Shown here: in pieces, positions 7,017-47,403 of the stretch
How positions within the stretch are numbered: the first letter of the stretch is position 1
How the letters are laid out: each line of letters opens with the position of its first letter
Assembly (NCBI GenBank): GCA_002450895.1
Contig: DKAR01000036.1
Location: 236-63,869, forward strand
Direction: 5' to 3'
DNA length: 63,634 nucleotides
DNA from: Proteobacteria bacterium UBA6921
GTDB taxonomy: Bacteria; Pseudomonadota; Gammaproteobacteria; SG8-11
The notes under the pieces: model-generated
The model's input: only the letters and a program-made list of their open reading frames with translations
Databases searched by the model: none
What the model was told of the DNA's origin: nothing
Made by a program: the position numbers and the translations under genes

Positions 7017-7123
7017 CGGGCCCAAGAATTAAGCCGACGGACTCCCGCATTCTTCCTAACACGCGTTTCGCTACCCGAGCGTGCAGTCACATTGTAGTGC
7101 GCTTGCCCGCAATCGTCGTTGCA

Positions 7124-9598: not shown

Positions 9599-11284
9599 TT
9601 GTCTGTGCACAACCGGATACTTGTGAACTTAATTCAGAAACATGATCAGGGCGTGATCGGTCAGCGCGCCCGGCATCGCACGGGCGCACTCTTTTCCGCG
9701 ACCGTCATTGTCTGCGCGTCTCTGACATTTTCTATCGCGGGCCAGGCGAATGGTGACGATGCGGTAAACACGCCCGCCGTACCCGCCGGCGAGGCCCGTT
9801 TCGAGGTTTCCGAATTTCGAGTTATTGGCAACACGCTTTTGGATGTCATCGATGTCGAAAGCGTGTTGATGAGGTTTTTGGGCCCTGGAAAGACCGGAGC
9901 GGACGTTGACGCGGCGCGGCAAGTGCTGGAACAACGCTACCGCGAGGCGGGATATCCCACCGTGCTGGTCAATGTGCCCGAGCAGGCGGTCACCGAGGGC
10001 GTGGTGCGCCTTCAGGTCGTCGAAGGAAAAGTAGAACGATTGTCGATTAAAGGCTCGAAGTACTATTCGCTTTCACTCATCAAGAAACAGGTCCCGGGCC
10101 TTGCCGAAGGCGCGATCCTTTATCTTCCCGAAGTACAACGGCAAATGAGTCAGGTCAATGCGGCGTCCGGTGATCGAACCGTGACACCCGTACTCCGCCC
10201 CGGAAAAACGCCAGGAACGGTCGAGGCAGAACTGCGTGTCACAGAAACGTTCCCGCTGCACGGAGATCTCGAACTCAACAACCGCTACAGTGGCGATACG
10301 AGCAAATCACGCCTGAGCGCGGGACTGCGCTATGACAATCTCTGGCAGAGTGCGCACAGCCTCGCTGTGAATTACCAGACCGCGCCGGAGGAGCCCAAGG
10401 AATCCACCGTGTGGTCCGGGACCTACCTGGCGCGTTTTACGACAACCGAGAATGTTCTGGTCGTTTATGGCGTTCAGTCCGACAGTGAAACCGCCGCCGT
10501 GGGCGATCTCAACGTGATTGGTAAGGGCCGCATAATGGGTGTCCGCGGCATTTTACCTCTTGTACCTCCGGAGCATGGGACTCGGACAATAACGCTCGGG
10601 CTCGATTACAAGGATTTTGACGAAACGATTACTGTCCAGGGTTCTGACACGCTCAACACGCCGATTACTTATGTAAGCTGGTTGGCACAATACGGCGGCG
10701 GCGAGCGGACGGAAGACTCGAGCCTGCAGTGGTCGCTGGGAGCTGTCGTTGGAATTCGTGGCATTGAGAACTCGAACCAGGAATTCGCCAACAAGCGCTA
10801 CAACGCGAAAGCGAATTTTCTGATATTGAAATCGGACCTCGACTATCAAACAAAAAATATTCAGTCGTCAACGCTCCGATGGCATGTGGCTGCACAGCTG
10901 TGCGACGCGCCCCTGATCAGCAACGAACAGTTCTTTGCCGGCGGCGCGGACTCGGTGCGCGGATACAAGGAGTCGCAAGCGCCGGGTGATTACGGTGCCG
11001 TGATGAATATTGAATGGTCAACGCCTTCCTATGCCGCCGCAGTGAGCGAGCAGGTTCGCGATCTTCGCGCTCTGTTCTTCATTGACGCGGCGTCACTTCG
11101 GCTTCGCGACGCGCTCCCCGGACAAGATCGGAGTACCGAACTCTATTCCACCGGTATTGGCCTGCGTACCAGCGCGTGGTCAACGCTATCCCTCGATGTC
11201 GATCTCGCCATGGCACTGAAAGAATTTGGTGACACAGACAAGAATGAGTGGCGCGTCCACGGGCGACTTTCCTACTCGTTCTAA
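9599..11284 (+). CDS. Two-partner secretion outer-membrane transporter (TpsB; ShlB/FhaC/HecB family)
   Basis: POTRA region: FEVSEFRVIGNTLL...GKVERLSIKGSKYYS. The Omp85/TpsB loop-6 motif VRGY is present in ADSVRGYKE. The C-terminus is the beta-barrel ending ...RLSYSF. The start is uncertain because the track start is a non-ATG codon. Confidence 0.85.
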   Translation: MSVHNRILVNLIQKHDQGVIGQRARHRTGALFSATVIVCASLTFSIAGQANGDDAVNTPAVPAGEARFEVSEFRVIGNTLLDVIDVESVLMRFLGPGKTGADVDAARQVLEQRYREAGYPTVLVNVPEQAVTEGVVRLQVVEGKVERLSIKGSKYYSLSLIKKQVPGLAEGAILYLPEVQRQMSQVNAASGDRTVTPVLRPGKTPGTVEAELRVTETFPLHGDLELNNRYSGDTSKSRLSAGLRYDNLWQSAHSLAVNYQTAPEEPKESTVWSGTYLARFTTTENVLVVYGVQSDSETAAVGDLNVIGKGRIMGVRGILPLVPPEHGTRTITLGLDYKDFDETITVQGSDTLNTPITYVSWLAQYGGGERTEDSSLQWSLGAVVGIRGIENSNQEFANKRYNAKANFLILKSDLDYQTKNIQSSTLRWHVAAQLCDAPLISNEQFFAGGADSVRGYKESQAPGDYGAVMNIEWSTPSYAAAVSEQVRDLRALFFIDAASLRLRDALPGQDRSTELYSTGIGLRTSAWSTLSLDVDLAMALKEFGDTDKNEWRVHGRLSYSF

Positions 11285-27300: not shown

Positions 27301-28818
27301 TCGCTCGATGCACCATTGCACGCGAACGATGCCGGCGATCCGGTGTTCGTCGTCGCGCAGCACGGCGATCTGGACATGACGACGTGGACGAAGCAATCCT
27401 TTAAATCCGGATTGTGGCTTGCGAAGTCTGCCGAGATCGTGGCGGGACGAGACATTCTTGATCCGGACATCGCGATTCAACACGCCAATGTCGGCGATGT
27501 GAGCCAGATCGTGGCCGGACGCGATATTCGTTATGAGACCGAACGTGACTCGAAAACGCGGCGCATCGTTCCCAAAGGAATTGCCAGCCAGAAAAGCATC
27601 GTCGTTGATGGTCCCGGCGAGGTACTGGTTTCCGCCGGTCGCGATGTCGATCTGGGGGCGTCCAGTGCCGGTATCCTGACCCGCGGTGATGTCGTCAATC
27701 CGGCCTTGGCGGATAACGGAGCCAACCTGACGGTGCTTGCCGGTATTGGAACAGGCGCCGACTACGCCACGTTCATCGATACATACATCAACGGTCGTGA
27801 CGATTACCACGATGCATTGATCGCCTACATGCAGTCGCGCGGCGCGCTTGTCTATACCTACACCGACGCCGTTGCCCAATTCGATGTGTTGAGTCGATCC
27901 GAGCAAATGCCGTTTCTCGAACGCATCTTGTTCACGGAAATGCGTATTGCCGGGCGGGATGCGGCGACGAGCGGCAGCGGCGATTACTCGCGTGGGTACA
28001 CGGCGATCAGCGCATTGTTCCCGGATCCCGATGCACAAGGCCGACTCGCGCTGTATTTCAGTCGCGTCTATACCCTCGACGGTGGCGATATCAATCTGAT
28101 GGTGCCCGGTGGGGAAGTGAACGTGGGATTGGCCGCGCTCCCGACGTCGTTCGGTATCACCAAGAAGCCCGAAGAACTGGGTATCGTGACGCAGAGCACC
28201 GGCAGCGTGAATATCCTCGCGCGTGACGATGTGCTGGTGAACACGTCGCGCGTCTTCGCCGGGGATGGCGGGTCCATTCTGATCTGGTCATCCGAAGGTG
28301 ACATTGATGCGGGTCGCGGCGCCAAGACGGCCATCTCCGCGCCGCCGCCGGAAATCACTGTGGATCCGGCCACCGGACAAGCCAAGATTGTCTACAAGGC
28401 CGCGTTGAACGGCAGCGGCATTCGCGCGTTCGTTACCACGGAAGGTCGCGCTGCTGGTGATGTCGATTTGTTCGCACCGAGCGGCGTCATCAATGTGAAC
28501 GATGCCGGCATTGGTTCGGCCGGCAACATCACCATAGGCGCCACCGAAGTGATCGGGTCCGACAACATCGACGTCGGTGGCGTCGCAGTCGGTATTCCGT
28601 CCGTCGATACGAGCAGCCTGTCGTCCTCGTTGTCCGGCGTTGCCGCCGCGGGCGCGACCAAGAGCGCTGAACAAAATGCGAGCGACAGCGCAGGCGCTTC
28701 CGACAAATCGACAACGCCTATCGCAGACGCCGCCGTCAGCTTCCTTGAAGTGGAGGTGCTCGGTTTCGGCGAAGACGACGAAGAAGAAAAGAAAAAACGC
28801 GAGCAGGAATCCAAGTAG
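18388..28818 (+). CDS. Giant TpsA exoprotein (filamentous haemagglutinin family, 3476 aa)
   Basis: An extended N-terminal signal region is followed by a TPS domain (VLNWSSFNIGADAAVNF...AINKIV...ANGQIYLINPNRIVFG...GGLVASTLEL). Thousands of residues of Gly/Ala/Ser/Asp-rich beta-helix repeat follow. A conserved C-terminal region reads GGDINLMVPGGEVNVG...GGSILIWSSEGDIDAGRGAKT...GDVDLFAPSGVINVNDAGI. The tail is charged (GEDDEEEKKKREQESK). Confidence 0.9.
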   Translation: MSHSVVNQSLTARAQARPGKRRLPPEFRMRRCFALTLSAMAAIACAPSHVSAEPANTALPTACGNGNCGGKQWVTLGSASASVQNNQMNVVVQGQTAVLNWSSFNIGADAAVNFQQDNATAVAINKIVTENPTEIFGQLTANGQIYLINPNRIVFGKTAKVDVGGLVASTLELTDEALKDGIAGAIHNLGPDGKPVPAFVATYDSSGHVVNGDIEIQQGASLKSADGGRILVFAPNVVNRGDINTPNGQTILAAGSKIYLAAAQADGNREDSDVAGLVVEVDVSEINNDELTKFLHGETTQLLLGSVNNYGSINADVGNISLVGLAVNQSGRVTAKTSVRRNGTILLRAGDGIAAGNVGANGGNLSNYSPRGGLVTLGAGSVTEIIPDSADTSATADVVEQPKSRIDLRGHSVHLLGDAHVTATSGDVTITAQQDPSQTLATQADNDSRVFIDDGAVIDVSGAAVSLSADRATVTVQLQSEQLKDSPEQRDSVVKGEYVTVDIRQTGVNADGSTWVGTPLADITGAIQAVNRTVDERSVEGGTITIRSQGDVIVSAGATLDISGGRKDYEAGVIHTTKLVSDGKLYDIGAADPNRHYDGIAGQYTQSSAKWGQSKTWSMLGEVGTYSAAFTQGADAGQLNIDTSRMILDGKVRADVVKGDYQNDSQSRPGNVSEDVWSELPSSMAAQGTFVFGNTAQDTEPVHRYRGDDVVIEEQQLLSQLKDSGFDPTRDALPETLDHITIRPSLFSSDGVGSASIRSSETVTVAAGANVQMNAGSSLQLIGSTVTIDGNVSATGGNVSALAVKTGTNSLNEGHDVTLSHGASIDVSGSWVNDDPLIAGSTRDQRWINGGSVQLEAKLGNIVMESDSSIDASGSAWLKSDGKIKAGSGGKIDIVTESDGTSVTLDGELSAYGMSRGGSLSITTANSICISTGVCDGLAKESVLTLVPDFFQQGGFGSYSLTSKFGGLVVAAGTELSPRQQNLVLDSGYRSSASGADLRTFSHLEERPAESRRATDLTLKSKSELRIESGAVIEADAGSKVSLSSTDRIYVDGTVQTHGGSIALTVSDYAGGDDVVANQAIWLGQNARLDVSGTTLLQPSPIGLRAGTVYDGGTVSLTANAGYVIAESGSLINVPGTQATLDLPDGNGGYTAVDVGSNAGTVRIKSAEGAVLEGSMEGHAGSATALGGTLAVTIDANNRGEPGEFTLTADKNHFSHDDRVIEVIDDVAQSALSGTTYETFGAAFSAPDAGHAGVSTVRTTMLDQGGFDALELTAKNLRTIPDQSNDNQVDLRAYGIVRVESDLNLDRRLVIDAPTLDVAADSVVLGAAYVAIGSREGLLTESAPTTTSDHSLTVNAQWLDVVGHSSIINTNDIALHAESDLRLRPVPSTNLEDNALAMTGSLTVAGHLELQADVVYPATFTDLTITAKDTAAPGSITVLPGDETHGVLSAGGALHLVANQIDQRGVLKAPLGVIDLQAHGTEAVPGNLVLAEGSVTSTSAEGQVIPAGQSEGGFDWVYNINSQTKLLFGGEFDPVPQQSIQLGGDNVALNDGAKLDASGGGDLQLYEWVNGLGGSRDILDPAVSPLSFAVLPTFGETIAPWDEHESGAFTSKSVGTTVYLEGVAGLPSGEYAVLPPRYALMPGAYLITELPNLRDRPAGQTGMLINGTPITTGYFGVAGTEQREDRTRGFSVVSSELLRDANDPHRPAEYTLTLASEFLAQQAADGAVVGRMPNDAGVVSIAAEDSLNLQAQLIGNAANGGRGAGVDIASANLVVTADGAGAADGGIPISADVLNGLGAESIFLGGRRSEGAEGTELNVISNNVTIASGANLVAPELILAARDTVVLADGATVSGAGESNQEGSNYVVNGDAAIMRVSGGAQSELVRHAASGNAGSIDVASGATVAADGSALFDVSKNLSFAGNIDVQGASLAVGAAQINLGDVPANTEGFNLASSTLIGINADELRLNGRQSINVFSAPIIEAQRLVLDTPLLEARAGSSDAVTQVHADEVILRNSTGSAVSSNPSAQTHGSLQISAGNADAAGEIEQGQGTVTVAGFDAVKLTSTGAIYGRDTGTLNTGAADVTLDAGVISGHRGSETTITTQGRVDIAASNTASSALADDAIGATLSINADTIHDDGRIVMASGAVNLHATGAYGVTLDPNGVIDVSGVVRDFTVTTRPSPGGNVEIVADSGNITLNAGSSISVAGAVTADGLGADAGSLTLRAPQGTVKVESDLDGSAQSDQRQGRATIDARRIDNLAALNLALNNAAFNDERVLRIREGDVDLDTDITAHRIDITVDGGALTVGNQNANVTLDASGNEGGHVRLAARDDVQVSSGVTIDASGSEGDGGNVELMSSEGVVQTEQGSTIDVSHGSEGDAQDGEVHARVNESVLLPLASGGTSAMELKGTVIGSPVIVEGVHVTSLDSVGGVIGDAEIANARGSADAFMANATPIEAALEKYGTDVELRPGVELVSSTDLTLNTPWDLIDWRYGGAPGVLTLRAAGDVNINQTLSDGMMFDWIAYASLPAAGPSWSYRIAAGADLASASPFGLAASSERTRTGSIAIAPGYVGTSIYDPTVQTAVRTGTGDVEMAAAGNVELGNAASVIYTAGTPVSGISASMRESLDYIWGFTAAFPENGGDIIVRAGGDMTGASSHHLVTEWLWRMGSDAATTGEMPTAWGIQFDQFTDGIGALGGGNVTLVAARDIDNVSAAIPTVGVPLGATPADNELHVTGGGILRVEAGRDIYGGMYFVGAGQGMLAAGGDIARAAGDSNGASYLKIALGDAEVGVSARGSIDVGSVFNPTIIPQSQSAGAYGFDPTIDFLTYQPDSRADFTAIAGAVHYHDSADATVNDARDGLYGVNDYTVQAELLRMLPPTLTMQALGGDIVVGGTGADNGSGKILKLAPAVSGQLELLAEGDVRLYDGILLSDTNPENLPTPEAPGRFFPASSDSLLTQLFAEYSPQFRSLDAPLHANDAGDPVFVVAQHGDLDMTTWTKQSFKSGLWLAKSAEIVAGRDILDPDIAIQHANVGDVSQIVAGRDIRYETERDSKTRRIVPKGIASQKSIVVDGPGEVLVSAGRDVDLGASSAGILTRGDVVNPALADNGANLTVLAGIGTGADYATFIDTYINGRDDYHDALIAYMQSRGALVYTYTDAVAQFDVLSRSEQMPFLERILFTEMRIAGRDAATSGSGDYSRGYTAISALFPDPDAQGRLALYFSRVYTLDGGDINLMVPGGEVNVGLAALPTSFGITKKPEELGIVTQSTGSVNILARDDVLVNTSRVFAGDGGSILIWSSEGDIDAGRGAKTAISAPPPEITVDPATGQAKIVYKAALNGSGIRAFVTTEGRAAGDVDLFAPSGVINVNDAGIGSAGNITIGATEVIGSDNIDVGGVAVGIPSVDTSSLSSSLSGVAAAGATKSAEQNASDSAGASDKSTTPIADAAVSFLEVEVLGFGEDDEEEKKKREQESK

Positions 28819-30032: not shown

Positions 30033-30277
30033 ACGGCGGCCGCATGCGAGCGGGATGCTCGCTCCATATGCCTAAGGCACTGTTGGCTGTACCTCCCATA
30101 AGAAAGCGCGGGCGGCGTGAGCGCGCCGCCCGCCGAATAACACCTTCCCGGGCCCTCCCGTCGCTGTCACGGAACTGCAATACGTCCCGCCGATAATTCG
30201 TCCGCGCCGCGCGTTACAACCCGATGCGATGTTCCGCGGACGTTGCAGGCTGGCCCGAATCAACCAAGGACACTTTC

Positions 30278-32092
30278 ATGGCAAAACGACTCGCCGCGAC
30301 ACTCTTCCTGTTTTGCCTGGTTCCCTCGCTGGCACAGGCCTGGTGGAATGACAGCTGGGATTTTCGAAAACAGATCAGTATCGATACCAGTGTGACCGGC
30401 GCCGACATCAAGGGCGCGGTCAGCAATGTTCCGGTGCTCGTGCGCCTGCATACCGGAAACTTTCCGTATTTCAAGGACGCAAAGCCCGACGGTTCCGACC
30501 TGCGTTTTGTCGCCGGCGATGACAAAACGCCTTTGAAGTTTCATGTTGAAAGCTATGACTCGGTCAATGAGATCGCATTGATCTGGGTCAAGGTGCCCGG
30601 CGTACAGGGTAACAGCACCAGCGAAAAATTCTGGATGTACTACGGAAACGCGGATGCGCCGGCGGCGCCTGATGCCGGTGGCACCTGGGATACCCAACAA
30701 GCGCTGGCGCTTCATTTCGATGCGGACGCGGGTGCGCCGCAGGATCGCACCGCGTACGGCAATCACCCCGCCAGTTCGACGGCCGTGCGCAATCCCAATT
30801 CGCTCATCGGCGGCGGTGTGCGTTTCAGCGGCAGCGAGTCGATTGCCATCAATCCGTCGCCTTCGCTGTTGATGAAACCGGAATCGGGCTGGACTTTCGC
30901 GGCATGGATCAAGCCCCAGGGACCGCAACAGGAAACTGCCTTGCTGTACAGCCGCGACGGCAATGCCTCGCTGATGTTCGGAATCAAGGACGCGCGTCTG
31001 TTCGCACGCTATCGCAACGCGGACGGAAAGGTCGCAGAGATTCCGGCGGATGGAACGCTGAATCTCGGAACCTGGACCCACGTCGCGATGACGCTGGGCG
31101 CGGGACGCATTGCCATCTTCATTAATGGAAACGAAACAGCGTCGGCGAACGCGGTCCTTACCGAGAAGGGCGGCAAAATTATTATCGGCGCCAGCGAAGG
31201 CGCCAACTTCTTCATCGGCGAAATGGATGAAGTGGAAATTTCGAATATTGCGCGCAGCGCGGACTGGATCAAGCTCGCCGCGCGGGGTCAGGGTGCGGAA
31301 GGCACGCTGCTGCATTACGCGGAAGACGAGCAGAACAAGGGCGGTGGCGGAACGTCGTACTTCTCGGTCATTCTCCAGAACGTCACGATCGACGGTTGGG
31401 TGGTGATCGTTCTGCTGGCCGTCATGGCGGTCATAAGCTGGGTGGTGATGTTCGGCAAGGGCGTCGTGATCAATCGCGTGCGCCGCGACAATCGCGCGTT
31501 CCTGGATCAGTTCAAGAAGCTCGGCGCGCGTGATCCAGATGCGCTGGATGCAAAAGACTCCGAGGACGACAAGGAACTCGCCGGATCTCCGCTTTCGCAG
31601 GCGCTGTTTGGAAAGCATGATCATTTCCAGAGCTCGGCGCTCTATCACATCTATCACACTGGCATTCAGGAACTGCACTATCGCGTTGGCAAGGCGGTCG
31701 GAGCGCAGGCCGCCGGACTGTCACATCAGGCCGTGGATGCAATCCGTGCGTCGCTGGATGCCGCGGTCGTGCGTGAAACACAGAAGCTGAACAGCCAGAT
31801 GGTGTTGCTCACGATCGCCATTTCCGGGGGGCCGTTTCTCGGACTGTTGGGCACGGTCGTGGGCGTCATGATCACGTTCGCCGCGATTGCGGCCAGCGGT
31901 GACGTCAACATCAATGCCATCGCGCCAGGCATCGCGGCAGCTCTCGTTGCCACGGTCGCCGGACTCGCCGTCGCGATTCCTGCACTGTTTGGTTACAACT
32001 ACCTGTTGTCGCGGGTCAAGGAATGCGTCGCCGACATGCAGGTGTTCGTGGATGAGTTCGTAACGAAACTGGCGGAACACTACGGGCGCTAA
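30278..32092 (+). CDS. exbB: Fusion protein: signal peptide, DUF2341-like and LamG/concanavalin-like domains, then a C-terminal MotA/TolQ/ExbB proton-channel domain
   Basis: Signal peptide MAKRLAATLFLFCLVPSLAQA. The DUF2341-like N-terminus reads WWNDSWDFRKQISID...VPVLVRLH...GSDLRFV...LKFHVESYD. The LamG-like segment reads WTFAAWIKPQG...LFGIKD...WTHVAMT...IFINGNE. The ExbB core reads LLTIAISGGPFLGLLGTVVGVMITFAAIA...IAPGIAAALVATVAGLAVAIPALFGYNYL. Confidence 0.8.
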   Translation: MAKRLAATLFLFCLVPSLAQAWWNDSWDFRKQISIDTSVTGADIKGAVSNVPVLVRLHTGNFPYFKDAKPDGSDLRFVAGDDKTPLKFHVESYDSVNEIALIWVKVPGVQGNSTSEKFWMYYGNADAPAAPDAGGTWDTQQALALHFDADAGAPQDRTAYGNHPASSTAVRNPNSLIGGGVRFSGSESIAINPSPSLLMKPESGWTFAAWIKPQGPQQETALLYSRDGNASLMFGIKDARLFARYRNADGKVAEIPADGTLNLGTWTHVAMTLGAGRIAIFINGNETASANAVLTEKGGKIIIGASEGANFFIGEMDEVEISNIARSADWIKLAARGQGAEGTLLHYAEDEQNKGGGGTSYFSVILQNVTIDGWVVIVLLAVMAVISWVVMFGKGVVINRVRRDNRAFLDQFKKLGARDPDALDAKDSEDDKELAGSPLSQALFGKHDHFQSSALYHIYHTGIQELHYRVGKAVGAQAAGLSHQAVDAIRASLDAAVVRETQKLNSQMVLLTIAISGGPFLGLLGTVVGVMITFAAIAASGDVNINAIAPGIAAALVATVAGLAVAIPALFGYNYLLSRVKECVADMQVFVDEFVTKLAEHYGR

Positions 32093-32134
32093 CGCGCTCG
32101 CCTGACTCCCGTCAACGCATATCAGGACCCGACA

Positions 32135-32539
32135 ATGCGCGCGCAAACCGAAGCCAATCTTTACGACGACATCAACATCACGCCGATGCTGGATCTGGCG
32201 TATGTGTTGTTGGTGATCTTCATCATCATGACGACTGCCACCGTGCAGGGAATCAAAGTCAATCTGCCGAAGGCCAGCGCGACGCCGAGCCTGCACAAGC
32301 CGCAGACCAAGGCGATCACCATTTCTCAGGACGGAACCATCTTTCTCGATACATACCCGGTGACGCTGAACGAGCTTGAGGCGCGACTGCAGAGTTACAA
32401 GGCGGTGAACCCGGATCTACCGGTCATTGTGAAAGGCGACGCGTCGATTCAATACCAGCGCGTTATCGAAGTCCTGGATTTGCTCGGTCGCCTGGAGATC
32501 ACGCAGCTCGGACTCGTGACCCAGCGCGTTGTTAAATAG
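32135..32539 (+). CDS. exbD: Biopolymer transport protein ExbD/TolR
   Basis: 134 aa. N-terminal TM motif INITPMLDLAYVLLVIFIIM and a periplasmic domain with ...ITISQDGTIFLD...VIVKGDASIQYQRVIEVLDLL. Confidence 0.85.
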   Translation: MRAQTEANLYDDINITPMLDLAYVLLVIFIIMTTATVQGIKVNLPKASATPSLHKPQTKAITISQDGTIFLDTYPVTLNELEARLQSYKAVNPDLPVIVKGDASIQYQRVIEVLDLLGRLEITQLGLVTQRVVK

Positions 32540-32559
32540 TTGATGATCGGCCGCGTCTC

Positions 32560-33219
32560 ATGACCACGCGCGCGCATTACAAAAAATACCTGCCCCAAAT
32601 AGCAGGCGGGACACTGGTCGTTGCGGTGCTTGCCGGTCTGATTGCGTTCATCCAGCACATGCTGAATTCATCGACACCGATCGGTAAAAAAGCCGTTCAA
32701 CAAATCACGCTGCTGCAGCCGCCACCGCCGCCGCCACCCCCGCCGAAAGTTGAGGAACCGCCGCCGGAGCCTGAAGTCGTCGAAGACAAAACGCCCGATC
32801 CAGATCCACAACAGACAGACAACACGGCGGATGACGTCCCGCCGGGCACGGATCTTGGTCTCGACGCTGACGGAGGTGCCGGCGGCGATCTGTTCGGTCT
32901 GGTCGGGCGCAAGGGCGGTCGTGATCTGATCGGCAGCCGCGGCAGCATGGAGGCGTGGTATGCGAACGTCATCAAGTCTGACGTGCAGGATCTTCTTTAC
33001 GAAGATCCCGCCGTGCGCAAAAAACGTTACGCCGTCGATGTGCGTTTCTGGATCGATCCGGAAGGACACGTAAAACGTTTTGAGTTGCTGCGAACGAGCG
33101 GCGACCGCGATATGGATGGCGCGCTGAAAACCGCGCTGCGAAATTTTTCCAAGGTGCGTGAACGTCCGCCGGAGGAATTGCCACGTTCCTTCACGATCCG
33201 CATCACATCACGTCTTTAG
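32560..33219 (+). CDS. tonB: TonB-family energy transducer
   Basis: N-terminal TM anchor (GGTLVVAVLAGLIAFI), a proline-rich spacer (PPPPPPPPPPKVEEPPPEPE) and a TonB-C-like domain (YAVDVRFWIDPEGHVKRFELLRTSGDRDMDGALKTAL). Confidence 0.7.
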   Translation: MTTRAHYKKYLPQIAGGTLVVAVLAGLIAFIQHMLNSSTPIGKKAVQQITLLQPPPPPPPPPKVEEPPPEPEVVEDKTPDPDPQQTDNTADDVPPGTDLGLDADGGAGGDLFGLVGRKGGRDLIGSRGSMEAWYANVIKSDVQDLLYEDPAVRKKRYAVDVRFWIDPEGHVKRFELLRTSGDRDMDGALKTALRNFSKVRERPPEELPRSFTIRITSRL

Positions 33220-33228
33220 GAATTCGCC

Positions 33229-35037
33229 GTGCAGGCACGATTTCTGGAAACACAAAAAAAGGAACGACTTGTGATTTCAAAAGGGCATACAACGAAAATA
33301 ATACTGGCCGCATTTTGTATGGGGTCGTGGTCGCTGCTCTCGAGTGCCGCAGAAATCACCACGCCGCCGCCTGCGCCCGAACCGGGCGTGACGCCGGAAC
33401 AACCCAAGCCGGAGGCGTCGCCCGCCGACCAAGCCATGCCCGATGTTTCGCCGGAAACCCAGCGCGAGGCGGAGTCACTGGTGAATGCGGTGAAAAAACG
33501 CGTTGCGAACGAAAACCAGCAGGCGCCGCTGCCGCCGGCGGAAACCAATGCGATCCGCGTGACGCATGTTCCGGAAACCATCAAGAACGAGATTCGCGAA
33601 CAGGTCAAAGCGGAGTTGCACGATCAGATCGTGCAGGATGTCTTCACGCAGGCGCGCAATGAACAGTGGGGTTTGCCGCAGGCGCTGCCATCGTGGGTGA
33701 ACAAGTTTTCGCTGAAGGGTGATATGCGCCTGCGCGAGCAGGGGGACTATTTCGACAGCGGGAACATCGGTTGCAACATCAGCGACGGGTATGTTGACTT
33801 TAATGTCGTAAACGCCAAGGGTGGCGTCGGTAAAGCCGGCCTGGATCGCTGTATCAACACAACAGAAGATCGCCAGCGTCTGCGCACCCGTGCCCGGCTC
33901 GGGGCGGATGCAAAAGTGAACGACACGTTGAAAGCGGTGCTGCGAATAAGCACCGGCAACACACGCGATCCGGTATCCACCAATCAGACGCTTGGCAATT
34001 ATGGTGGCCGGTACGGTGTGGTGTGGGATGAAGCCTATTTGCGCTACGACGGTATGGACCTGGATCGCTTTCCCTGGCTGACGCTCTATGGCGGGCGCAT
34101 GGCGAATCCCTGGCTGTCGACTGATCTCGTTTGGGACAACGACCTGGCGTTCGAAGGCCTTGCCGGGACGATGCGCTTCAATTTGCGCGGGTCGGGAAAT
34201 TTGCTCGACATGAATGAACGGGACCGAATTCTGTTCCTCACTGTCGGTGCATTCCCGTTGCAGGAAGTCGAGCTATCAAAACGGGACAAGTGGCTTTATG
34301 GCGTTCAGCTGGGGACGGATTTGATCTTTCTTAACCAGTCTACGCTGCGAATTGGTCTCGCGTACTACCACTACGAAAACATTACCGGAGTGCGCAATTC
34401 ACTCGATTCCGTGGACTATGACTTTACCGCACCGGGGTATGTGCAAAAAGGCAATGGCCTGTTCGATATCCGCAACGACGACTCAACGTCGGATCCTCTG
34501 GGGAATTCGGATTATTGGGCGCTGGCCGCGGACTACAAACTTGCGGACCTCACCATTCAGTACGACAGTCTCGCACTCGCGCCACATCACATTGTTACAA
34601 CGATCGACGTGGTCAAGAACATCGGGTATGACAAGGGTGAAATCTGGAAGCGCACCAACGGCAATGGCGTGCAGTATGCCGGCGGATTTGCGACCAATGT
34701 GGGCGCGAGCGATTCCGAAAAAGCCGCCGCGTCCGTCAAGGAACGCTCGCTCGGATATCAGGTGATGCTCAGCTATGGATGGCCGATTGTCGCGGAGCGC
34801 TATACGTGGCGGGTGCACGGTGAATATCGTTACCTGCAACGCGACGCGGTGCTGGATGCGTTTACCGATTCAGACTTTCATCTGGGCGGCACGGATGCCA
34901 AGGGGTGGATCATCGGCGGCGACTACGCCATCGACGAGAACACTGTATTGTCATTCCGATATTTGACTTCCGATTCGATCGACGCCGCGCCGTTGTCGAT
35001 CGATTCCGTTCAGCTGGATCTTTCCGCCAAATTCTGA
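33229..35037 (+). CDS. Outer-membrane beta-barrel (putative porin family) with a Pro-rich, helical N-terminal extension
   Basis: Signal peptide ...SWSLLSSAAE, then a PAPEPGVTPEQPKPE linker. Alternating beta-strand sequence follows (FSLKGDMRLREQGDY..., LRTRARLGADAKVN, VLRISTGN, GYQVMLSYGW, WRVHGEYRYLQRD). The C-terminal residue is aromatic (...LDLSAKF). The exact start is uncertain (GTG 33229). Confidence 0.5.
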   Translation: MQARFLETQKKERLVISKGHTTKIILAAFCMGSWSLLSSAAEITTPPPAPEPGVTPEQPKPEASPADQAMPDVSPETQREAESLVNAVKKRVANENQQAPLPPAETNAIRVTHVPETIKNEIREQVKAELHDQIVQDVFTQARNEQWGLPQALPSWVNKFSLKGDMRLREQGDYFDSGNIGCNISDGYVDFNVVNAKGGVGKAGLDRCINTTEDRQRLRTRARLGADAKVNDTLKAVLRISTGNTRDPVSTNQTLGNYGGRYGVVWDEAYLRYDGMDLDRFPWLTLYGGRMANPWLSTDLVWDNDLAFEGLAGTMRFNLRGSGNLLDMNERDRILFLTVGAFPLQEVELSKRDKWLYGVQLGTDLIFLNQSTLRIGLAYYHYENITGVRNSLDSVDYDFTAPGYVQKGNGLFDIRNDDSTSDPLGNSDYWALAADYKLADLTIQYDSLALAPHHIVTTIDVVKNIGYDKGEIWKRTNGNGVQYAGGFATNVGASDSEKAAASVKERSLGYQVMLSYGWPIVAERYTWRVHGEYRYLQRDAVLDAFTDSDFHLGGTDAKGWIIGGDYAIDENTVLSFRYLTSDSIDAAPLSIDSVQLDLSAKF

Positions 35038-35048
35038 GGAGGCCCGTT

Positions 35049-35717
35049 ATGCAAACTCAACTTGTCTATCTTGCCGCTGCTTTGATCATGCTGGTATCCA
35101 CGGCCGGAAACGCCGAGACAGCGCGTCGCGAATCGGGTGGCGCCGATAGCGCCGCATTGCTTCGTGCACAAGGGCAGGTACGCGAAATGGCGGCGCAGCG
35201 CGACGCCCTCGCCGCCGAGAATGAAAAGCTCAAGGATGAAATGAAGAAGAAGTTGGAGGAAAAAGACGCAAAGATTGCATCGATGAACAAACGAATGGAT
35301 GCAATGCAAAACAGTTCAGAGCGATCGGACGCCGTCGCTGAAAAAACACGGGAAGTGAATCAGGCCATGCGCGACCGGATCCTCGAAACCCAGGAAAAGA
35401 TGCAGAAGCTGGTGGACAAATACAAGGAATTGGTTGCCGCGCTGCGGGTAATTGAAGACGAGCGTACGAACCTGCAAAAGACGGTTGCGCAAAAGAACTC
35501 CGAAATCGACAGCTGCGCCAACAACAACGTGACGCTCTACAACACCAGCCTGGAACTGATCGACCGTTACGAAAACAAGGGCGTATGGGATGCGATGCTG
35601 GAGAAGGAGCCGGTGACCCAGCTCAAGCGCGTTGCAATGGAAAACGCCGTACAGGATTACCGAAACCGCGTTGAATCAGCAAAGGTTGAAGTTCCGGACA
35701 GTCGCCTTTCCAACTGA
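35049..35717 (+). CDS. Secreted coiled-coil protein
   Basis: ATG 35049 with signal peptide LAAALIMLVSTAGNAE, then about 150 residues of heptad-like, charged sequence (AAENEKLKDEMKKKLEEKDAKIASMNKRMDAMQ...). It starts 11 nt after the porin stop. The track ORF start at 34905 is over-extended. Confidence 0.55.
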   Translation: MQTQLVYLAAALIMLVSTAGNAETARRESGGADSAALLRAQGQVREMAAQRDALAAENEKLKDEMKKKLEEKDAKIASMNKRMDAMQNSSERSDAVAEKTREVNQAMRDRILETQEKMQKLVDKYKELVAALRVIEDERTNLQKTVAQKNSEIDSCANNNVTLYNTSLELIDRYENKGVWDAMLEKEPVTQLKRVAMENAVQDYRNRVESAKVEVPDSRLSN

Positions 35718-36152
35718 CCGCTCTCGAAATGCGAGTGTGGGATATTTAAAGGTCGCCGGACCACCTGTCGGCAAGAAATGCGTCGGATGCTATTGGCATC
35801 GTAGGTGCCGATGTGATCGGACCGTATTACGTTGCTCAATGCATTTCGAAATGCCCTCGTAGTTCAAATGCAGGACCCCTCCCGGGTTTGGTCACACTTG
35901 ATTCAAAGAAGCGTCATTGACACCCCGTAAAACATCGCGTGCCGGGTGGGACGAGAATGCGCCGATCCAACCTCGCGCGATAGTCGCAAAACCGTTCGCG
36001 CGCACAAGTTTCCACCGGCAGGTCTTTTGCGCCGCACGATTCTGCAGATCGGGCGCTGCGATGGGCGAAGGAGTGTGGGCGATGATGTTTGTGGTGCCCT
36101 GCAAGGCACCACGTCGCATGTGCGGACGCAGGGTAAACATGGAGAAGGCACT

Positions 36153-36842
36153 ATGCTCCGAAAAAAAATCATCCCGGTCTTGTTGTGCGCAGGAATGGGT
36201 CCAGTCGGCGTTGCTCAAGCAACGGCGGTGTCGTATTACATGGATCAATCCAATGTTGCCAACGCGCCCGCGATCGCTGACGGCACCGCGAATTTTCTGC
36301 AGGTGACGATCGACGACGAAGGTGCAGCCGGTTACATCAATTTCACCGTCAGTGTGCTTCCTGCGCTGGGCAGTCTGGCAGGCAGCAATTTTGGTATTGA
36401 AAAGTTTTCGTTCAACGTGACCAGTGCAGGCGTGTTACCGTCGGATTCGGGCTGTACGCCCGGGCCGTCGTGTACCGACTGGTTGCTGCCCGCCGGGTGG
36501 TCGGCAAATACGCCGCCGCCACCCAACCAGAACGATGGTTTCGGAAAATTCGACGTTGAAGTTTCCGATGGTGGCACGGCGCGGCAAACGACGTTGCAGT
36601 TTTCGTTTGCCTCGACGAACACGTTGGCGATGTTGCTGGATCCGTCGGCAAATCCCGCCGCTGAAGGCAATGCGTATTTTGCCGCTCATGTCGCAGGATT
36701 CAGCACGACAGACACGTCGAACAACATTGTGACGAGTGCTTATTTCGGAGCTACCGACTTGTTGTCGGTTCCCGTTCCGGCACCGTTGCTGTTGCTGGGT
36801 TCGGCGTTGTTGTCGCTGATTCGGTTCCGTAAAAAACAATAG
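36153..36842 (+). CDS. Small secreted protein with a PEP-CTERM-like (VPxP) C-terminal sorting tail
   Basis: ATG 36153 with signal peptide MLRKKIIPVLLCAGMGPVGVAQA. The C-terminus is LLSVPVPAPLLLLGSALLSLIRFRKKQ. The track ORF start at 35946 is over-extended. Confidence 0.65.
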   Translation: MLRKKIIPVLLCAGMGPVGVAQATAVSYYMDQSNVANAPAIADGTANFLQVTIDDEGAAGYINFTVSVLPALGSLAGSNFGIEKFSFNVTSAGVLPSDSGCTPGPSCTDWLLPAGWSANTPPPPNQNDGFGKFDVEVSDGGTARQTTLQFSFASTNTLAMLLDPSANPAAEGNAYFAAHVAGFSTTDTSNNIVTSAYFGATDLLSVPVPAPLLLLGSALLSLIRFRKKQ

Positions 36843-36959: not shown

Positions 36960-36999
36960 GTGTCACATCGCTGTCTCTTCTGTTTCATGAATCCGTCAT
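36960..36999 (+). promoter_or_regulatory. Two tandem Pho boxes upstream of the PhoX-like gene
   Basis: GTGTCAC-ATCG-CTGTCTC-TTCT-GTTTCAT-GAAT-CCGTCAT, four heptamers at exact 11-bp spacing. The array ends about 100 nt upstream of ATG 37101. Confidence 0.65.
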
Positions 37000-37100: not shown

Positions 37101-38501
37101 ATGTTCCGACAGACGATCATAACCGCAGCCGCTGCCGTCGCAATGATTCCCGCGGCAGCCTGTGCAACGACCGGCCCAAGCAGCTCGCAAACACCTTACC
37201 TCACGCCGTCTGCAGCGGGTGTTGAATTCACTTCGATCCTGACCGTTGGCGATACCGTGAAGAAGAAAAACAAGGGCAGTGAAACGTATCGCATGGTCGG
37301 CATCCCCGATGGGCTGGGAGCCTATGATAACGGCGATGGCACAATCACCGTTTTGATGAATCAGGAACTCGGCAGCTCACTTGGTGCGGTTCGTGCGCAT
37401 GGTTCGAAGGGTGCTTTTGTCTCGCAATGGACGGTTCGCAAGAGCGACCTCGCCGTTCTCAAAGGCAAAGACCTGATGGAGAACGTTGTCCTCACTTCCG
37501 GTGGCTCGACGGCGTTCAACCGCTTCTGTTCCGCGGATCTCGCCGCAACGACGGCCTACTTCAACAGCACCAGCGGCAAAGGCTTCAACGAAGGCCGTAT
37601 CTTCCTGAACGGTGAAGAAACCTCCGGCGGCCGCGCCATGGCGCACATGGCATCAGGTCGCGATCAGGGCACCAGCTATGAGTTGGCGGCGCTGGGCACC
37701 GCGGCGTGGGAAAACCTGGTGGCCAGCCCGTTCGAACAGGACAAGACCGTCGTCGCGGGAATGGATGACGGTTCGATCGGCGCCAGCAAGGTTTACATCT
37801 ACGTCGGGCAAAAGCAGGAAGAAGGCAGCCCGATCGAAATGGCCGGCCTGACCAATGGGACGAGCTTCCAGGTGCTCGTGCAAGGTGCGGCGACTGAAGC
37901 TTCGATTGGTAATGACTTCTCCGGCGCGTTCTCGCTGGTCACCACCGGCGGCACCGGCCTGAACCGCGTGGAAGACGGCGCATGGGATACTGTGAATCCG
38001 AACCGCTTCTACTTCGTGACCACCGACAGCTTCAACGGTAACACCCGGCTGTGGCGCATGACGTTCAGCGACATCACCAACCCGACCGCGGGCGGCATGA
38101 TTGAGGTGCTCGTCAACGGTGTGGTGGACGGACAGAAGATGATGGACAACATCACCGTGGATGCGGCCGGCAACGTCTACATGCAGGAAGACGTCGGCAA
38201 CAACGTTCGTCTGGGCAAGATCTGGAAGTACGACACCACCGGCGCGCTGACGGAACTTGCCGAGCATGACGCCAACCGCTTTATCAACGGCGCCCCCGGA
38301 GACATCGACGGCAGCGCAACCAAGGCGGAAGACGAAGAGTCCTCCGGCATCATCGAAGTTACGAGCATGTTCGAAGGCGTCGACGGCTATGACACCGCGA
38401 ACAACCGCTACTTCCTGCTCGACGTCCAGGCGCACTACGCGACCGGCGACGCCGAAACGGTGGAAGGCGGCCAGTTCCTGATGATGAAGGCGCCCAAGTA
38501 G
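37101..38501 (+). CDS. Secreted beta-propeller protein, PhoX/DUF839-like putative phosphatase (tentative)
   Basis: Signal peptide MFRQTIITAAAAVAMIPAAACA. YRMVGIPDGLGAYDNGDGTITVLMNQELG...GAVRAHGSKGAFVSQWTV resembles the N-terminal signature I associate with DUF839/PhoX proteins. The Pho boxes upstream support a phosphate-scavenging role. Confidence 0.45.
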   Translation: MFRQTIITAAAAVAMIPAAACATTGPSSSQTPYLTPSAAGVEFTSILTVGDTVKKKNKGSETYRMVGIPDGLGAYDNGDGTITVLMNQELGSSLGAVRAHGSKGAFVSQWTVRKSDLAVLKGKDLMENVVLTSGGSTAFNRFCSADLAATTAYFNSTSGKGFNEGRIFLNGEETSGGRAMAHMASGRDQGTSYELAALGTAAWENLVASPFEQDKTVVAGMDDGSIGASKVYIYVGQKQEEGSPIEMAGLTNGTSFQVLVQGAATEASIGNDFSGAFSLVTTGGTGLNRVEDGAWDTVNPNRFYFVTTDSFNGNTRLWRMTFSDITNPTAGGMIEVLVNGVVDGQKMMDNITVDAAGNVYMQEDVGNNVRLGKIWKYDTTGALTELAEHDANRFINGAPGDIDGSATKAEDEESSGIIEVTSMFEGVDGYDTANNRYFLLDVQAHYATGDAETVEGGQFLMMKAPK

Positions 38502-42458: not shown

Positions 42459-42718
42459 GGCGCGGCTAGTGCCAATACCGTTTATGCGGTGAGGGTGCAG
42501 CGCTCTTCCGCCACTTCACGCTTTTTTCGATCGTTCGCTGTTTCAGTCCAGTTCCTTTAAGAATGTTCCCGGTTTGGGCCACAACTGTGTATGACAGTGT
42601 CATCTCTCCGCCATCTCTTCGAAATGCTTGTTTCATTTCTCTGTCATGCATTGCGGCGAAATTTCGCAACGTAGATTGAGTTTGTTCGCATCACCCATTG
42701 AGCAAAGGCGGAAATACG

Positions 42719-43189
42719 ATGGAACTTAAAAAGCAGAACATTTCGCTACGCATGAACACTTCAGACCTGCGCAAGATCAAGCAGATTGCGCAACGTCTCG
42801 GAGCGCGTGAATCGGATGTCTTTCGGTTCGCGATCAAATCGACACTGGCCAAACTTTCGCCGCTATGCGAACTGCAAGCGCACGGCAGCGACCTGGTTCC
42901 GGTGTTTATGGAGGTGGGACCGGAATTGGCGAAGTACTTCGATCTGGATTCGTCCCGGCTGGATCGGATTATCAATGACGGAGTTCTGGATCCCACAAAA
43001 CGAGTCGACCGCGATGATCTGGAGCTCCTCGCGCTGTCGGGTCTCGAGGCGAACTACATGGTCCTGAAGTTGCGGGAGCGCGGTGCGCGGCCCGCGACGG
43101 CGACCGACGGCCCCGCAACGGTTTTGCGCGAGTACTTACTGCAAAAGTACCTGGCGCGCGCCGTTGCTGCGGAACGCCAGATTGCTTAA
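42719..43189 (+). CDS. Hypothetical protein with an N-terminal ribbon-helix-helix-like segment
   Basis: MELKKQNISLRMNTSDLRKIKQIAQRLGARESDVFRFAIKSTL has a strand-helix-helix pattern typical of CopG/Arc-type regulators. ATG 42719 has an AGGCGGA Shine-Dalgarno-like sequence; the track start at 42698 is a TTG. Confidence 0.45.
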   Translation: MELKKQNISLRMNTSDLRKIKQIAQRLGARESDVFRFAIKSTLAKLSPLCELQAHGSDLVPVFMEVGPELAKYFDLDSSRLDRIINDGVLDPTKRVDRDDLELLALSGLEANYMVLKLRERGARPATATDGPATVLREYLLQKYLARAVAAERQIA

Positions 43190-43223
43190 CCAAAAGAACG
43201 AATACACCAAGGAGGAGCACGCC

Positions 43224-43730
43224 ATGAATTCAGTATCCGGTTGCCGGAATGTGCTGAGCAGTGCTGTCGCAGCACTGACTCTGACTTTTTCCGCCGTCGC
43301 ATCTGCGAACAATGTTGTTTACGAAGACGTCGATTTTTTTGAAGGGAAAGGGTCCAGCAGTGAATCGTTCCATATTGATACCACGGGACTCTATCAGGCC
43401 ACGTTGACGGACTTTCAGTTTCCCAGTTCTTTCTCCGGCAACTTCGCACTCGGGGTCGCGACGGGTGGAAATTCAATGGTGGGCACCACGAACGGAAGTG
43501 GCAGTTTCACCTTTCAGGCCGCCCCGGGGACGTATTGGGCGAACGTTTATGGTGTAACTGCAGGACCGCTTGATCTCGGTTTGTATGGCATTCGTATTGA
43601 ACAAATCATGGCAACGCCACTCCCGACTGCAATGCTTTTGTTGTTCTCCGGACTGGTTGCTTTGGTCGGTGTCGGGCGCGGGGGAGCGCGCCTGACCCCA
43701 CCAATGTTCCCTTTGCAGGCAACGGCTTAG
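43224..43730 (+). CDS. Small secreted protein with a PEP-CTERM-like C-terminal tail
   Basis: ATG 43224 is preceded by AGGAGG, and the signal peptide is ...AALTLTFSAVASA. The C-terminus is ATPLPTAMLLLFSGLVALVGVGRGGAR plus a 14-aa extension. The track ORF start at 43083 is over-extended. Confidence 0.6.
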   Translation: MNSVSGCRNVLSSAVAALTLTFSAVASANNVVYEDVDFFEGKGSSSESFHIDTTGLYQATLTDFQFPSSFSGNFALGVATGGNSMVGTTNGSGSFTFQAAPGTYWANVYGVTAGPLDLGLYGIRIEQIMATPLPTAMLLLFSGLVALVGVGRGGARLTPPMFPLQATA

Positions 43731-43821
43731 TGATGCGGACTGTGGCTGAAATAATTCGGTCACAGTCCTCGCGTAGCCTAATTACTCGTTAACAAACAGA
43801 CGGTTGTAGGCGGATTGAAGT

Positions 43822-44439: not shown

Positions 44440-44447
44440 GCCCGTGA

Positions 44448-45602: not shown

Positions 45603-45617
45603 CGAGGGAAGGCGGCA

Positions 45618-47375: not shown

Positions 47376-47403
47376 CCGAATTTATTTGCTGAGACTGCTT
47401 TTT

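Follow-up and report, generated by a model that had tools for sequence, protein, structure and literature searches.

A 63,634-nucleotide (nt) stretch of DNA from Proteobacteria bacterium UBA6921 (assembly GCA_002450895.1, contig DKAR01000036.1; hereafter the window, at its full length) contains five genes for an ExbB/TolQ-like channel subunit, an ExbD/TolR-like subunit, a TonB/TolA-like transducer, an outer-membrane barrel of the Porin_5 family, and a secreted helix-rich protein. This set is very probably a conserved accessory motor operon of loci for PdtA-type two-partner secretion (TPS) adhesins, corresponding in gene order and annotation to exbB2-exbD2-tonB4-PA0696-PA0697 of Pseudomonas aeruginosa and served by its own PhoB-type promoter under phosphate limitation. 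The function proposed here is more tentative: a proton motor of Tol-like type, induced under Pho control, that would act at the porin on the C-terminal end of the PdtA-type adhesin, a possibility that falls somewhat short of probable.

Composition and conservation of the motor cluster

Five open reading frames (ORFs) occupy 30224-35717 of the plus strand, with intergenic gaps of 42, 20, 9, and 11 nt and no evident intrinsic terminator 3' of the fifth gene. A first-pass annotation of the DNA had described five closely spaced genes on one strand, and all five products were confirmed at their positions (Table 1). The long ORF of the ExbB-like gene spans 30224-32092; its true start is likely the ATG at 30278 (MAKRL..), which follows an AAGGA ribosome-binding site, and the counterpart in the closest relative is called at 604 amino acids (aa). 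From this ATG the protein opens with a classical-type signal peptide (MAKRLAATLFLFCLVPSLAQA, ending in AQA and followed by WWNDSW). Pfam places DUF2341 at residues 89-170 (E=1.4e-17), Laminin_G_3 at residues 205-350 (E=1.5e-24), and MotA_ExbB (PF01618) at residues 499-606 (E=1e-28). The DUF2341/LamG part initially proposed for this ExbB, predicted to be periplasmic, was borne out by the domain search, as was the ExbD assignment of the next gene. The fusion is specific to this family; the one mention of DUF2341 in a 2025 survey of MotAB relatives is as an appendage, left unexplained, on A subunits of the 'generic ion transporter' group. The ExbD-like protein, 60-83% identical across loci, has a transmembrane Asp (PMLDLAYV) that is conserved in 48 homologues. 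The features that mark a stator are present: a PF01618 channel subunit, the Thr residues of the second and third transmembrane helices, and a PF02472 partner with its transmembrane Asp.

The third product had been read as a TonB with an 11-residue polyproline run; it is a TonB/TolA-like protein, but the run is nine residues long (P54-P62) and is joined by a PEPE spacer. An invariant Gly-rich motif, DLGLDAxGGAGxDxFGLxGRKGGR (residues 97-121, 32848-32922), sits between the Pro-rich spacer and the C-terminal domain and is of low confidence in the AlphaFold2 (AF2) model. The fourth product is a large barrel with a Pro-rich and helical N-terminal extension, as first described, and is considered further below. 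The fifth has no Pfam family; its NCBIfam matches are weak and fall on coiled-coil segments of SMC, Rad50, and ZorA. Composition makes it clearly helix-rich (74% E/K/Q/R/D/L/A/M/N and 2 Pro in the mature protein), and its C-terminal ~70 residues are conserved (..C..KN..LY....EL.DRYENKGVWDALL.KEP..). The secreted, helical character attributed to it stands, and a true coiled coil, as originally named, is plausible rather than proven.

Conservation of the cluster was followed with a porin-based pattern scan of one genome per GTDB species, which returned at least 566 loci, the best 80 of which were kept; synteny was counted over 81 genome loci, with only loci having enough flanking sequence entering each count. 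The LamG/DUF2341 N-terminal region of ExbB was found at 61/61 loci, the channel part of ExbB at 65/65, ExbD at 68/68, the TonB-like protein at 71/74, and the helical protein directly after the porin at 69/70, with gene order and strand constant. The cluster is therefore not a Pseudomonas curiosity: its five genes are co-conserved (61/61 to 71/74 per gene) as a fixed unit. The earlier picture of a self-contained module does not survive, because the module is tied to a PdtA-type TPS adhesin in both scan directions. A conserved TpsA C-terminus lies 5' of exbB at 45/49 genome loci, ending 20-800 nt before it in most. In a reciprocal scan from the TpsA C-terminus over 80 metagenome loci, LamG-ExbB was found at 38/48, ExbD at 35/42, the TonB-like protein at 33/40, and the porin at 32/35. 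An Immundisolibacter locus reads TpsA-ExbB(DUF2341, LamG, MotA)-ExbD-TonB-Porin_5-helical protein, followed by genes for an Rce1-like product and a PpiC rotamase, and a Halochromatium locus reads TpsA-TpsB-ExbB-ExbD-TonB-Porin_5-helical protein. In some rearranged metagenome loci (L091, L095, L103, L105, L116, L117, L122, L132), the porin stands directly after TpsA, and the motor is several kb farther downstream or not seen; the helical protein joins the porin after TpsA in L095, L091, and L132.

The window's own TpsA gene is translationally coupled to a gene for a TPR protein. Its partner is likely the TpsB encoded 7 kb upstream; in seven other genome loci TpsB lies between TpsA and exbB, as in P. 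aeruginosa. Homologues of 36-44% identity take this place in L022, L031, L033, L046, L064, and L077, and a partial copy is seen at the edge of L037. The C-terminal ~400 residues of TpsA are 36-53% identical in other loci, an unusual degree of conservation for a TpsA. The protein ends in a Ser/Ala/Gly-rich low-complexity linker and the strand FLEVEVLGFG (residues 3452-3461, DNA 28741-28770), and a disordered linker with a near-invariant C-terminal strand motif recurs in ~120 TpsA homologues. The tail motif comes in two forms, ..LSVEVLGFGE, placed at the extreme end or close to it, and ..LSWLDVFVTGLGEENCKPDDxECLKRQ... It shows no informative correlation with presence of the module, being found also in the few module-less loci. 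A contact-dependent inhibition (CdiA) toxin was considered for the C-terminus and rejected because the last 330-560 residues are conserved across distant taxa, with many invariant columns; exbB follows directly.

The Pho-box-like site before exbB is followed after 10 nt by a -10 element, GATAAT (30192-30197), and is preceded by a weaker Pho-like site at 30153, in 11-bp phase with it. This arrangement has the classical geometry of a PhoB-dependent promoter, in which two 7-bp direct repeats 4 bp apart take the place of the -35 element ~10 bp before the -10 element. When the window was scanned with the consensus CTGTCAY-N4-CTGTCAY, allowing up to three mismatches, 31 Pho-box-like sites were found against 12.9 expected, a number that 0 of 100 shuffles reached; the sites mostly precede genes, and the window is a Pho island. 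Among 109 homologous loci, 44 have an exbB-upstream box (at least 11/14 positions, sense strand, within 250 nt), compared with 2.2% of shuffles and 3/109 loci on the opposite strand. A stricter box (at least 12/14) is found at 16/109 loci versus 0.13% of shuffles. The homologous sites cluster 60-125 nt upstream of the exbB start, and that of the window lies at 114 nt. Pho control of the module, predicted from these sites, is supported, and the phosphate-starvation link that was first drawn from the box at 30164-30181 and the flanking Pho-boxed genes holds, given the window enrichment, the homologous promoters, and the P. aeruginosa literature.

In P. aeruginosa, the gene order is pdtA-phdA-pdtB-exbB2-exbD2-tonB4-PA0696-PA0697-PA0698-PA0699, in which PA0696 is listed as a 'putative outer membrane porin', PA0697 as a protein with a signal peptide, and PA0699 as PpiC (PMC2729926, PMC7035377). 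Llamas et al. 2009 listed tpsA (PA0690), tpsB (PA0692), exbB2, exbD2, PA0695 as a tonB homologue, and PA0696 and PA0697 as proteins with signal peptides. They also reported a recurring association of PA0696 homologues with exbBD and TPS genes in Pseudomonas, Burkholderia, Rhodopseudomonas, and Janthinobacterium (PMC2729926). The PA0690-PA0701 block is induced by phosphate starvation via PhoB and sigma-VreI, and when phosphate is limiting, PdtA, PA0696, and PA0698 rank with the proteins that are most strongly enriched; the function of the cluster is described as 'still uncharacterized' (PMC2729926, PMC7035377, PMC9769906). The exbB2-exbD2-tonB4-PA0696-PA0697 genes have thus been listed since 2009 as strongly induced by phosphate starvation and expressed in patients, and in 2020 they were uncharacterised still. 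No later functional study of them was found in literature searches, nor any on DUF2341, Porin_5/PF16930, DUF3739, tonB4/PA0695, or TPS with ExbB, in keeping with the initial remark that a DUF2341-type ExbB with a putative porin is functionally uncharacterised. The likeness to exbB2-exbD2 had been put forward as a partial precedent; by gene order and published annotation, the match between the window module and the P. aeruginosa cluster looks complete. Going by the papers' annotation, PA0693 presumably carries DUF2341/LamG and PA0696 is presumably a Porin_5 protein. The window module is a further case of this already catalogued, functionally unexplained cluster, a membership assigned in view of the parallel order in Immundisolibacter and Halochromatium.

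Tol-like character of the motor and the Porin_5 fold

All three inner-membrane parts score higher as relatives of TolQ, TolR, and TolA than as relatives of their Ton counterparts ExbB, ExbD, and TonB. In NCBIfam, the ExbB-like protein scores 135 bits with TolQ (cut-off 221) versus 70 bits with exbB TIGR02797 (cut-off 206), and a PDB search returns TolQ 8odt first (E=7.5e-20), with ExbB at 2e-12. Alignment to 8odt shows the equivalents of TolQ T145 and T178 to be present. The equivalent of TolQ E173 (E176 in ExbB) is an invariant Ala in this family (A572, ~31937-31939, IAAAL). The ExbD-like protein scores 93 bits with tolR (cut-off 127) versus 73 bits with ExbD_2, and the ExbD models as a group give 57-73 bits against cut-offs of 123-216. 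On the transducer, TonB_2 (34.9 bits, cut-off 22) and TIGR01352 (36.7 bits, cut-off 27.1) exceed their thresholds, TonB_C falls slightly below its own (23.5 bits, cut-off 24.6), and tolA_full reaches 28.6 bits (cut-off 59.5). Its Pro-rich region has a weak NCBIfam match to GltJ. In the PDB its sequence weakly matches TolA C-terminal domains (E=0.014) and HasB (E=0.046). The C-terminal domain is modelled at a block-mean predicted local distance difference test (pLDDT) of 89-97, and its nearest PDB folds are TolA domain III (1lr0 at E=1e-3, 6s3w, 2x9a, 3qdr), with HasB and TonB ranking after them. No conserved transmembrane His was found in the transducer family. Because no score reaches the equivalog cut-off of its Tol model, and because neither TolB nor Pal was found in the window (Pfam) or among recurrent neighbours, the motor is assigned as a Tol-like paralogue, not the housekeeping Tol-Pal system. 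What had been called a TonB-type motor is Tol-like rather than Ton-like.

A plug-and-barrel TonB-dependent transporter had been reported missing from the window, and no Plug or TonB_dep_Rec match was obtained with Pfam for any gene-like window ORF of at least 150 aa. None was seen among recurrent neighbour clusters or in three Pfam-annotated loci (L081-L083), and such transporters number fewer than 8 among 64 large flanking ORFs, for which the 25 commonest families were listed.

The barrel itself matches Porin_5 at 523 bits (cut-off 22) over profile positions 39-535 of 535. Its AF2 model, built with 72 sequences, has a mean pLDDT of 78.7 and 16-18 strands, with the barrel beginning near residue 160. 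Ahead of it come, in order, the signal peptide, a Pro-rich stretch of low complexity, one helix at 75-98, and a long one at 116-145. Foldseek matches of the model are OmpM1 (best, E=1e-14), MOMP, OprB, DcaP, chitoporin, OprO/OprP, OmpF, and AlgE, and no 22-strand plugged TonB-dependent transporter is among the 50 matches listed. The fold and matches bear out the porin-like outer-membrane partner of the first-pass annotation; the idea that the 602-aa protein is a disguised TonB-dependent transporter was discarded, as it has no Plug/TonB_dep_Rec match, 16-18 strands, and a porin-like shape. No sequence relation of Porin_5 to OprP/OprO or to any solved porin emerged from phmmer and a PDB profile search, and the sole weak PDB sequence matches are of the helical N-terminus to ATP synthase subunit b. 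The family is large, comprising 4788 clusters at 50% identity with E<=1e-3, 3323 at 1e-10, and 1084 at 1e-30. In the N-terminal part, conservation across the family is highest at VRVPYVPEFVK, after which comes an amphipathic helix; in the window its VRVPYVPE motif is residues 108-116 (DNA 33553-33576). Strands 1-3 of the model carry a lumen-facing arginine stripe (R167, R169, R215, R217, R219, R221, R223, R239) that is invariant across 72 homologues, with R215-R223 encoded at 33871-33897; R290 and K354 are near-invariant. The stripe is reminiscent of the arginine ladder in OprP or of AlgE with its basic pore and, as modelled, is compatible with a lumen that is anion-selective or passes polyanions.

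Proposed function and alternatives

The partner of the transducer was approached with a single artificial AF2 chain composed of the full TonB-like protein, the 41-160 segment of the porin, and the C-terminal 70 residues of TpsA, with an alignment for the TonB-like part only, and read through secondary structure and pLDDT. In this one uncontrolled fusion, TpsA SFLEVEVLGF formed a 10-residue beta strand at a block-mean pLDDT of ~81, and the porin VRVPYVPE motif was coil at pLDDT <50. The remaining strands are the three of the TonB-like C-terminal domain; as these are the only others, the TpsA strand must pair with them in the model. The result suggests that what the TolA-like domain binds is TpsA, at its conserved C-terminal strand, and not the N-terminal motif of the porin, and it is consistent with the TpsA C-terminus being the most faithful neighbour of the module. 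A role of VRVPYVPE as a TonB or Tol box found no support in the same uncontrolled competition model.

The scheme that we infer would run as follows. The ExbB-like and ExbD-like proteins would form a Tol/Ton-type proton-driven stator in the inner membrane; if it is pentameric like TolQ/ExbB, the fused DUF2341-LamG domains would make a periplasmic lectin-fold crown, which might bind some periplasmic ligand. The TolA-like protein would bridge the periplasm via its Pro-rich spacer, and its C-terminal domain would capture the terminal strand of TpsA (..LxVEVLGFGE), presented after the disordered Ser/Ala/Gly linker, by beta-strand addition. Porin_5, with its basic lumen and N-terminal helical stalk, and the helical protein would make up the portion of the device at the outer membrane and in the periplasm, the porin serving either as a conduit that takes the acidic, unstructured TpsA tail to the periplasm or as an anchor beside the held tail. 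Proton-motive force could then be spent on the surface filament at its C-terminal end, which would be held, tensioned, retracted, or released. Such a device would be the native counterpart of the threading of a disordered Tol-box end through a porin by group A colicins, pulled by TolQRA. Taken to its full extent, the proposal describes a new kind of outer-membrane force device, in which a lectin-crowned Tol-like motor grips the TpsA strand while the acidic tail passes an arginine-lined porin, so that a micrometre-scale filament is anchored, tensioned, retracted, or shed when phosphate is lacking, by a process that colicins imitate to reach TolA/TolB; in this strong form it is speculative and rather doubtful.

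Several points weigh against this reading. No energy requirement is known for TPS secretion. Binding of the TpsA tail by the TolA-like domain comes from one uncontrolled single-chain AF2 model with a predicted template modelling score of 0.41, and the tail motif occurs also in DUF3739 TpsAs with no module within 8 kb (such as those at L107, L110, L112, and L144), as conversely 4/49 porin loci have no nearby TpsA. The arginine ladder is equally compatible with an anion channel, and the scheme gives no role to the conserved VRVPYVPE motif and helix, the LamG crown, or the Gly-rich motif. The correspondence with P. aeruginosa is set by gene order and annotation, not by sequence, and in that organism tonB4 and PA0696 transposon mutants left VreI-induced zebrafish killing unchanged (PMC2729926), a result that is uninformative here but lends no support.

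Much of the same evidence could be accommodated by an energised gate for phosphorus uptake, in which Porin_5 would be an anion-specific channel, its substrate a phosphorus-rich polyanion such as polyphosphate or nucleic acid, or else phosphate esters. The motor would open this channel or drive uptake by acting on the porin's N-terminal stalk and motif, and TpsA would be a surface capture device, as HxuA is for the TonB-dependent receptor HxuC. A Pho promoter conserved across lineages, a Pho island with pstS, phoBR, and many Pho-boxed genes, and an invariant lumen ladder recalling OprP/OprO, themselves among the structural matches, all favour this, and the conserved, strand-like N-terminal motif and helix of the porin could be the motor's handle. 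HxuABC is a precedent for TPS serving TonB-dependent uptake (PMC4873976). A gate of this kind is nevertheless rather unlikely: the AF2 competition, uncontrolled as it was, docked the TpsA tail and not the porin motif on the TolA-like domain; a plugless porin has no obvious energy need; neither Pfam nor NCBIfam detects a phosphatase, nuclease, or binding domain in TpsA; no periplasmic binding protein or inner-membrane transporter is among the recurrent neighbours of the module; and general porins likewise have basic clusters, opposite acidic loops. The resemblance of all three motor parts to TolQ, TolR, and TolA, and a gene order parallel to tolQ-tolR-tolA-(outer-membrane partner)-(periplasmic coiled-coil protein), would instead suit a stress-specific second Tol-Pal-like system, tethering or remodelling the outer membrane via the porin stalk and helical protein (compare Pal and the CpoB coiled coil) so as to preserve envelope integrity while phospholipids are replaced under phosphate starvation, with TpsA a neighbour and no client; that the best barrel match, OmpM1, is an outer-membrane attachment porin, with DcaP also matched, is in its favour. 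It is improbable all the same, given scores well under the TolQ/TolR/TolA equivalog cut-offs and no TolB or Pal in the window or at its recurrent neighbours, and it leaves both the tight two-way linkage to DUF3739 TpsA and the tail result unexplained.

Source annotations name the third gene 'protein TonB' or 'energy transducer TonB', its TonB_2 and TIGR01352 scores pass their cut-offs, and the window covers only part of the genome, all of which could point to an ordinary extra TonB system that energises distant TonB-dependent transporters, the porin and helical protein being just co-regulated Pho genes. The chance of this is slight: the ExbB-ExbD-TonB-porin-helical order holds in essentially every locus and in many families, with gaps of 9-20 nt here, no TonB-dependent transporter is found in the recurrent neighbour clusters or the three annotated loci, the C-terminal domain resembles TolA more than it does TonB, and the LamG/DUF2341 fusion is family-specific. 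An aid to export or assembly of an anionic exopolysaccharide and PEP-CTERM matrix, with the basic lumen passing the acidic polymer, the LamG crown binding it, and the motor supplying power, is barely credible. XrtA-type export genes do lie 3' of the module in the window and at ~17/81 genome loci, an exosortase-like gene stands between TpsA and exbB in the window, the alginate export barrel AlgE is among the structural matches, and LamG is a lectin fold; most loci, however, lack such neighbours, exopolysaccharide clusters have their own export protein and barrel, the exosortase insertion is confined to the window and its closest relative, and P. aeruginosa is not known to have an exosortase system.

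The gain over the catalogued cluster lies in the breadth and rigidity of the association, in the reassignment of the motor as Tol-like, and in a specific hypothesis of contact between the TolA-like domain and the TpsA tail, with a plugless porin-fold partner and a genetic locking to a TpsA that has a conserved C-terminal strand. If the adhesin-tail motor is real, the role of Tol/Ton-type motors would extend beyond import and envelope maintenance to the handling of type Vb adhesins, and a native function would be suggested for porin threading.

Neighbouring genes and relation to known systems

Table 1. Coordinates of the motor cluster, its TPS partners, and other annotated features of the window
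Feature	Position	Strand	Basis or remarks
Pho-box-like site CTGTCACggaaCTGCAAT	30164..30181	+	2 mismatches, 12/14 consensus positions
ExbB/TolQ-family proton-channel subunit	30278..32092	+	signal peptide, then DUF2341 + LamG, then MotA_ExbB
ExbD/TolR-family subunit	32135..32539	+	PF02472, E=4e-29
TonB/TolA-like transducer	32560..33219	+	N-terminal transmembrane helix, Pro run, Gly-rich motif, C-terminal domain 128-219
Porin_5 outer-membrane barrel, 602 aa	33229..35037	+	PF16930, E=1e-156
Secreted helix-rich periplasmic protein	35049..35717	+	signal peptide; directly after porin
PdtA-type TpsA, 3476 aa	18388..28818	+	TPS E=1.1e-19, NPXG, C-terminal DUF3739 E=2.9e-33
TpsB (POTRA_2 + ShlB/Omp85 barrel)	9599..11284	+	Pfam; Pho-like sites 9528, 9539
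pstC-like, pstS, phoR, phoB genes	1507-7090	-	Pfam
775-aa secreted protein, lactonase-type beta-propeller + Big_9/cadherin-like repeats	7231-9558	+	Pfam
VPLPA-CTERM protein, 283 aa	11744-12595	+	sorting domain (NCBIfam)
MIP channel	14496-15185		Pfam
Mini-exosortase, 179 aa	28837-29376	+	best matches XrtM and XrtH, below cut-offs (NCBIfam)
Polytopic membrane ORF, 219 aa	29373-30032	+	no family; overlaps mini-exosortase
298-aa protein	35946-36842	+	weak THxN PEP-CTERM match
XrtA-type exopolysaccharide locus	42698-48207, onward to ~62100	+
pepcterm_export	43822-44439	+	XrtA-type locus
Beta-barrel	44448-45602	+	XrtA-type locus
Chain-length determinant	45618-47375	+	XrtA-type locus
Tyrosine autokinase	47281-48207	+	XrtA-type locus
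LamG+GHL10 protein	48265-50151		XrtA-type locus

Other members of the Pho island flank the module. Pho-like sites at 7113 and 7124 precede the beta-propeller gene, whose product could act as an enzyme at the cell surface under Pho regulation. One Pho box without mismatch, CTGTCATCGTTCTGTCAC, with a second phased site (16911-16939, minus strand) stands before a 360-aa ORF (15773-16855, minus strand) that has no match in Pfam or NCBIfam. Three Pho-box-like sites in 11-bp phase (36960-36999, plus strand) precede a 466-aa ORF of no family (37101-38501, plus strand), a 69%-identical homologue of which is encoded close to the L015 module, though on the other strand. A 10-bp perfect GC-only hairpin at 30108-30133 (GCGGGCGGCG-tgagcg-CGCCGCCCGC), with a T-rich tail on the minus strand only, separates the membrane ORF from the exbB Pho box and may be a terminator or insulator.

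The mini-exosortase and membrane ORF are inserted between TpsA and exbB, an arrangement shared, among ~160 related loci, with the closest relative (L164) alone. The 283-aa VPLPA-CTERM and 298-aa THxN proteins may be clients of this exosortase, as putative substrates. Beyond 48207 the XrtA-type locus also includes glycosyltransferases, a Wzy-like protein, and a flippase; elsewhere its export genes lie a few kb 3' of the module and in several families. With the exosortase found only here and in the closest relative and exopolysaccharide genes at about one-fifth of loci, exosortase, PEP-CTERM, and exopolysaccharide genes were rejected as core parts, and their link to the module is a secondary neighbourhood association.

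Compared with PA0690-PA0699 of P. aeruginosa, the window has the same TpsA, TpsB, ExbB, ExbD, TonB homologue, putative porin, and signal-peptide protein, and phosphate-starvation control is predicted here too. It differs in having no vreAIR or hxc genes, in its TpsB 7 kb 5' of TpsA, in the exosortase-like gene and membrane ORF before exbB, and in the XrtA-type exopolysaccharide genes 3' of the module. The module resembles Tol-Pal in its best sequence and structure matches (TolQ, TolR, and TolA domain III), in keeping the TolR-type Asp and the T145/T178 equivalents, and in the periplasmic helical protein at the end of the operon; in Tol-Pal, the C-terminal domain of TolA binds its partners by beta-strand addition. 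It departs from Tol-Pal in having no TolB/Pal, in scores below the equivalog cut-offs, in the Ala at the E173 position, in the DUF2341-LamG fusion on its channel subunit, in a porin as outer-membrane partner, and in Pho regulation and TPS linkage. With Ton systems it shares a proton-driven stator, a Pro-rich periplasm-spanning transducer, and the TonB_2 and TIGR01352 matches, whereas it has no 22-strand plugged receptor in the window or conserved neighbours, a C-terminal domain closer to TolA, and no conserved transmembrane His.

Porin_5 has the 16-18-strand porin fold of OprP/OprO, DcaP, and OmpM1, and shares its arginine ladder and Pho regulation with OprP/OprO. DcaP and OmpM1 carry an N-terminal stalk, and the N-terminal helical periplasmic extension of Porin_5 is similar. 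In contrast to all of these, it has no detectable sequence relation to them, a larger barrel (~440 residues), and a genetically fixed association with a motor. Group A colicins offer an analogy for the adhesin-tail motor, as large proteins with a disordered end that bears a Tol-binding strand, a trimeric porin conduit (OmpF), and force from the Tol motor; a colicin, however, is a toxin that parasitises housekeeping proteins, whereas here one locus encodes all parts, the 'box' is at the C-terminus, and threading is only proposed. The Agl-Glt gliding machinery of Myxococcus likewise brings force to the cell surface, by way of a motor resembling TolQR, periplasmic proteins resembling TonB, outer-membrane barrels without plugs, and an adhesin on the surface. 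Its barrel families and adhesin are unrelated, its components are many more, and the weak GltJ match is the one sequence link seen. Colicin porin threading and Agl-Glt serve as working analogies for how the motor might act, not as relatives.

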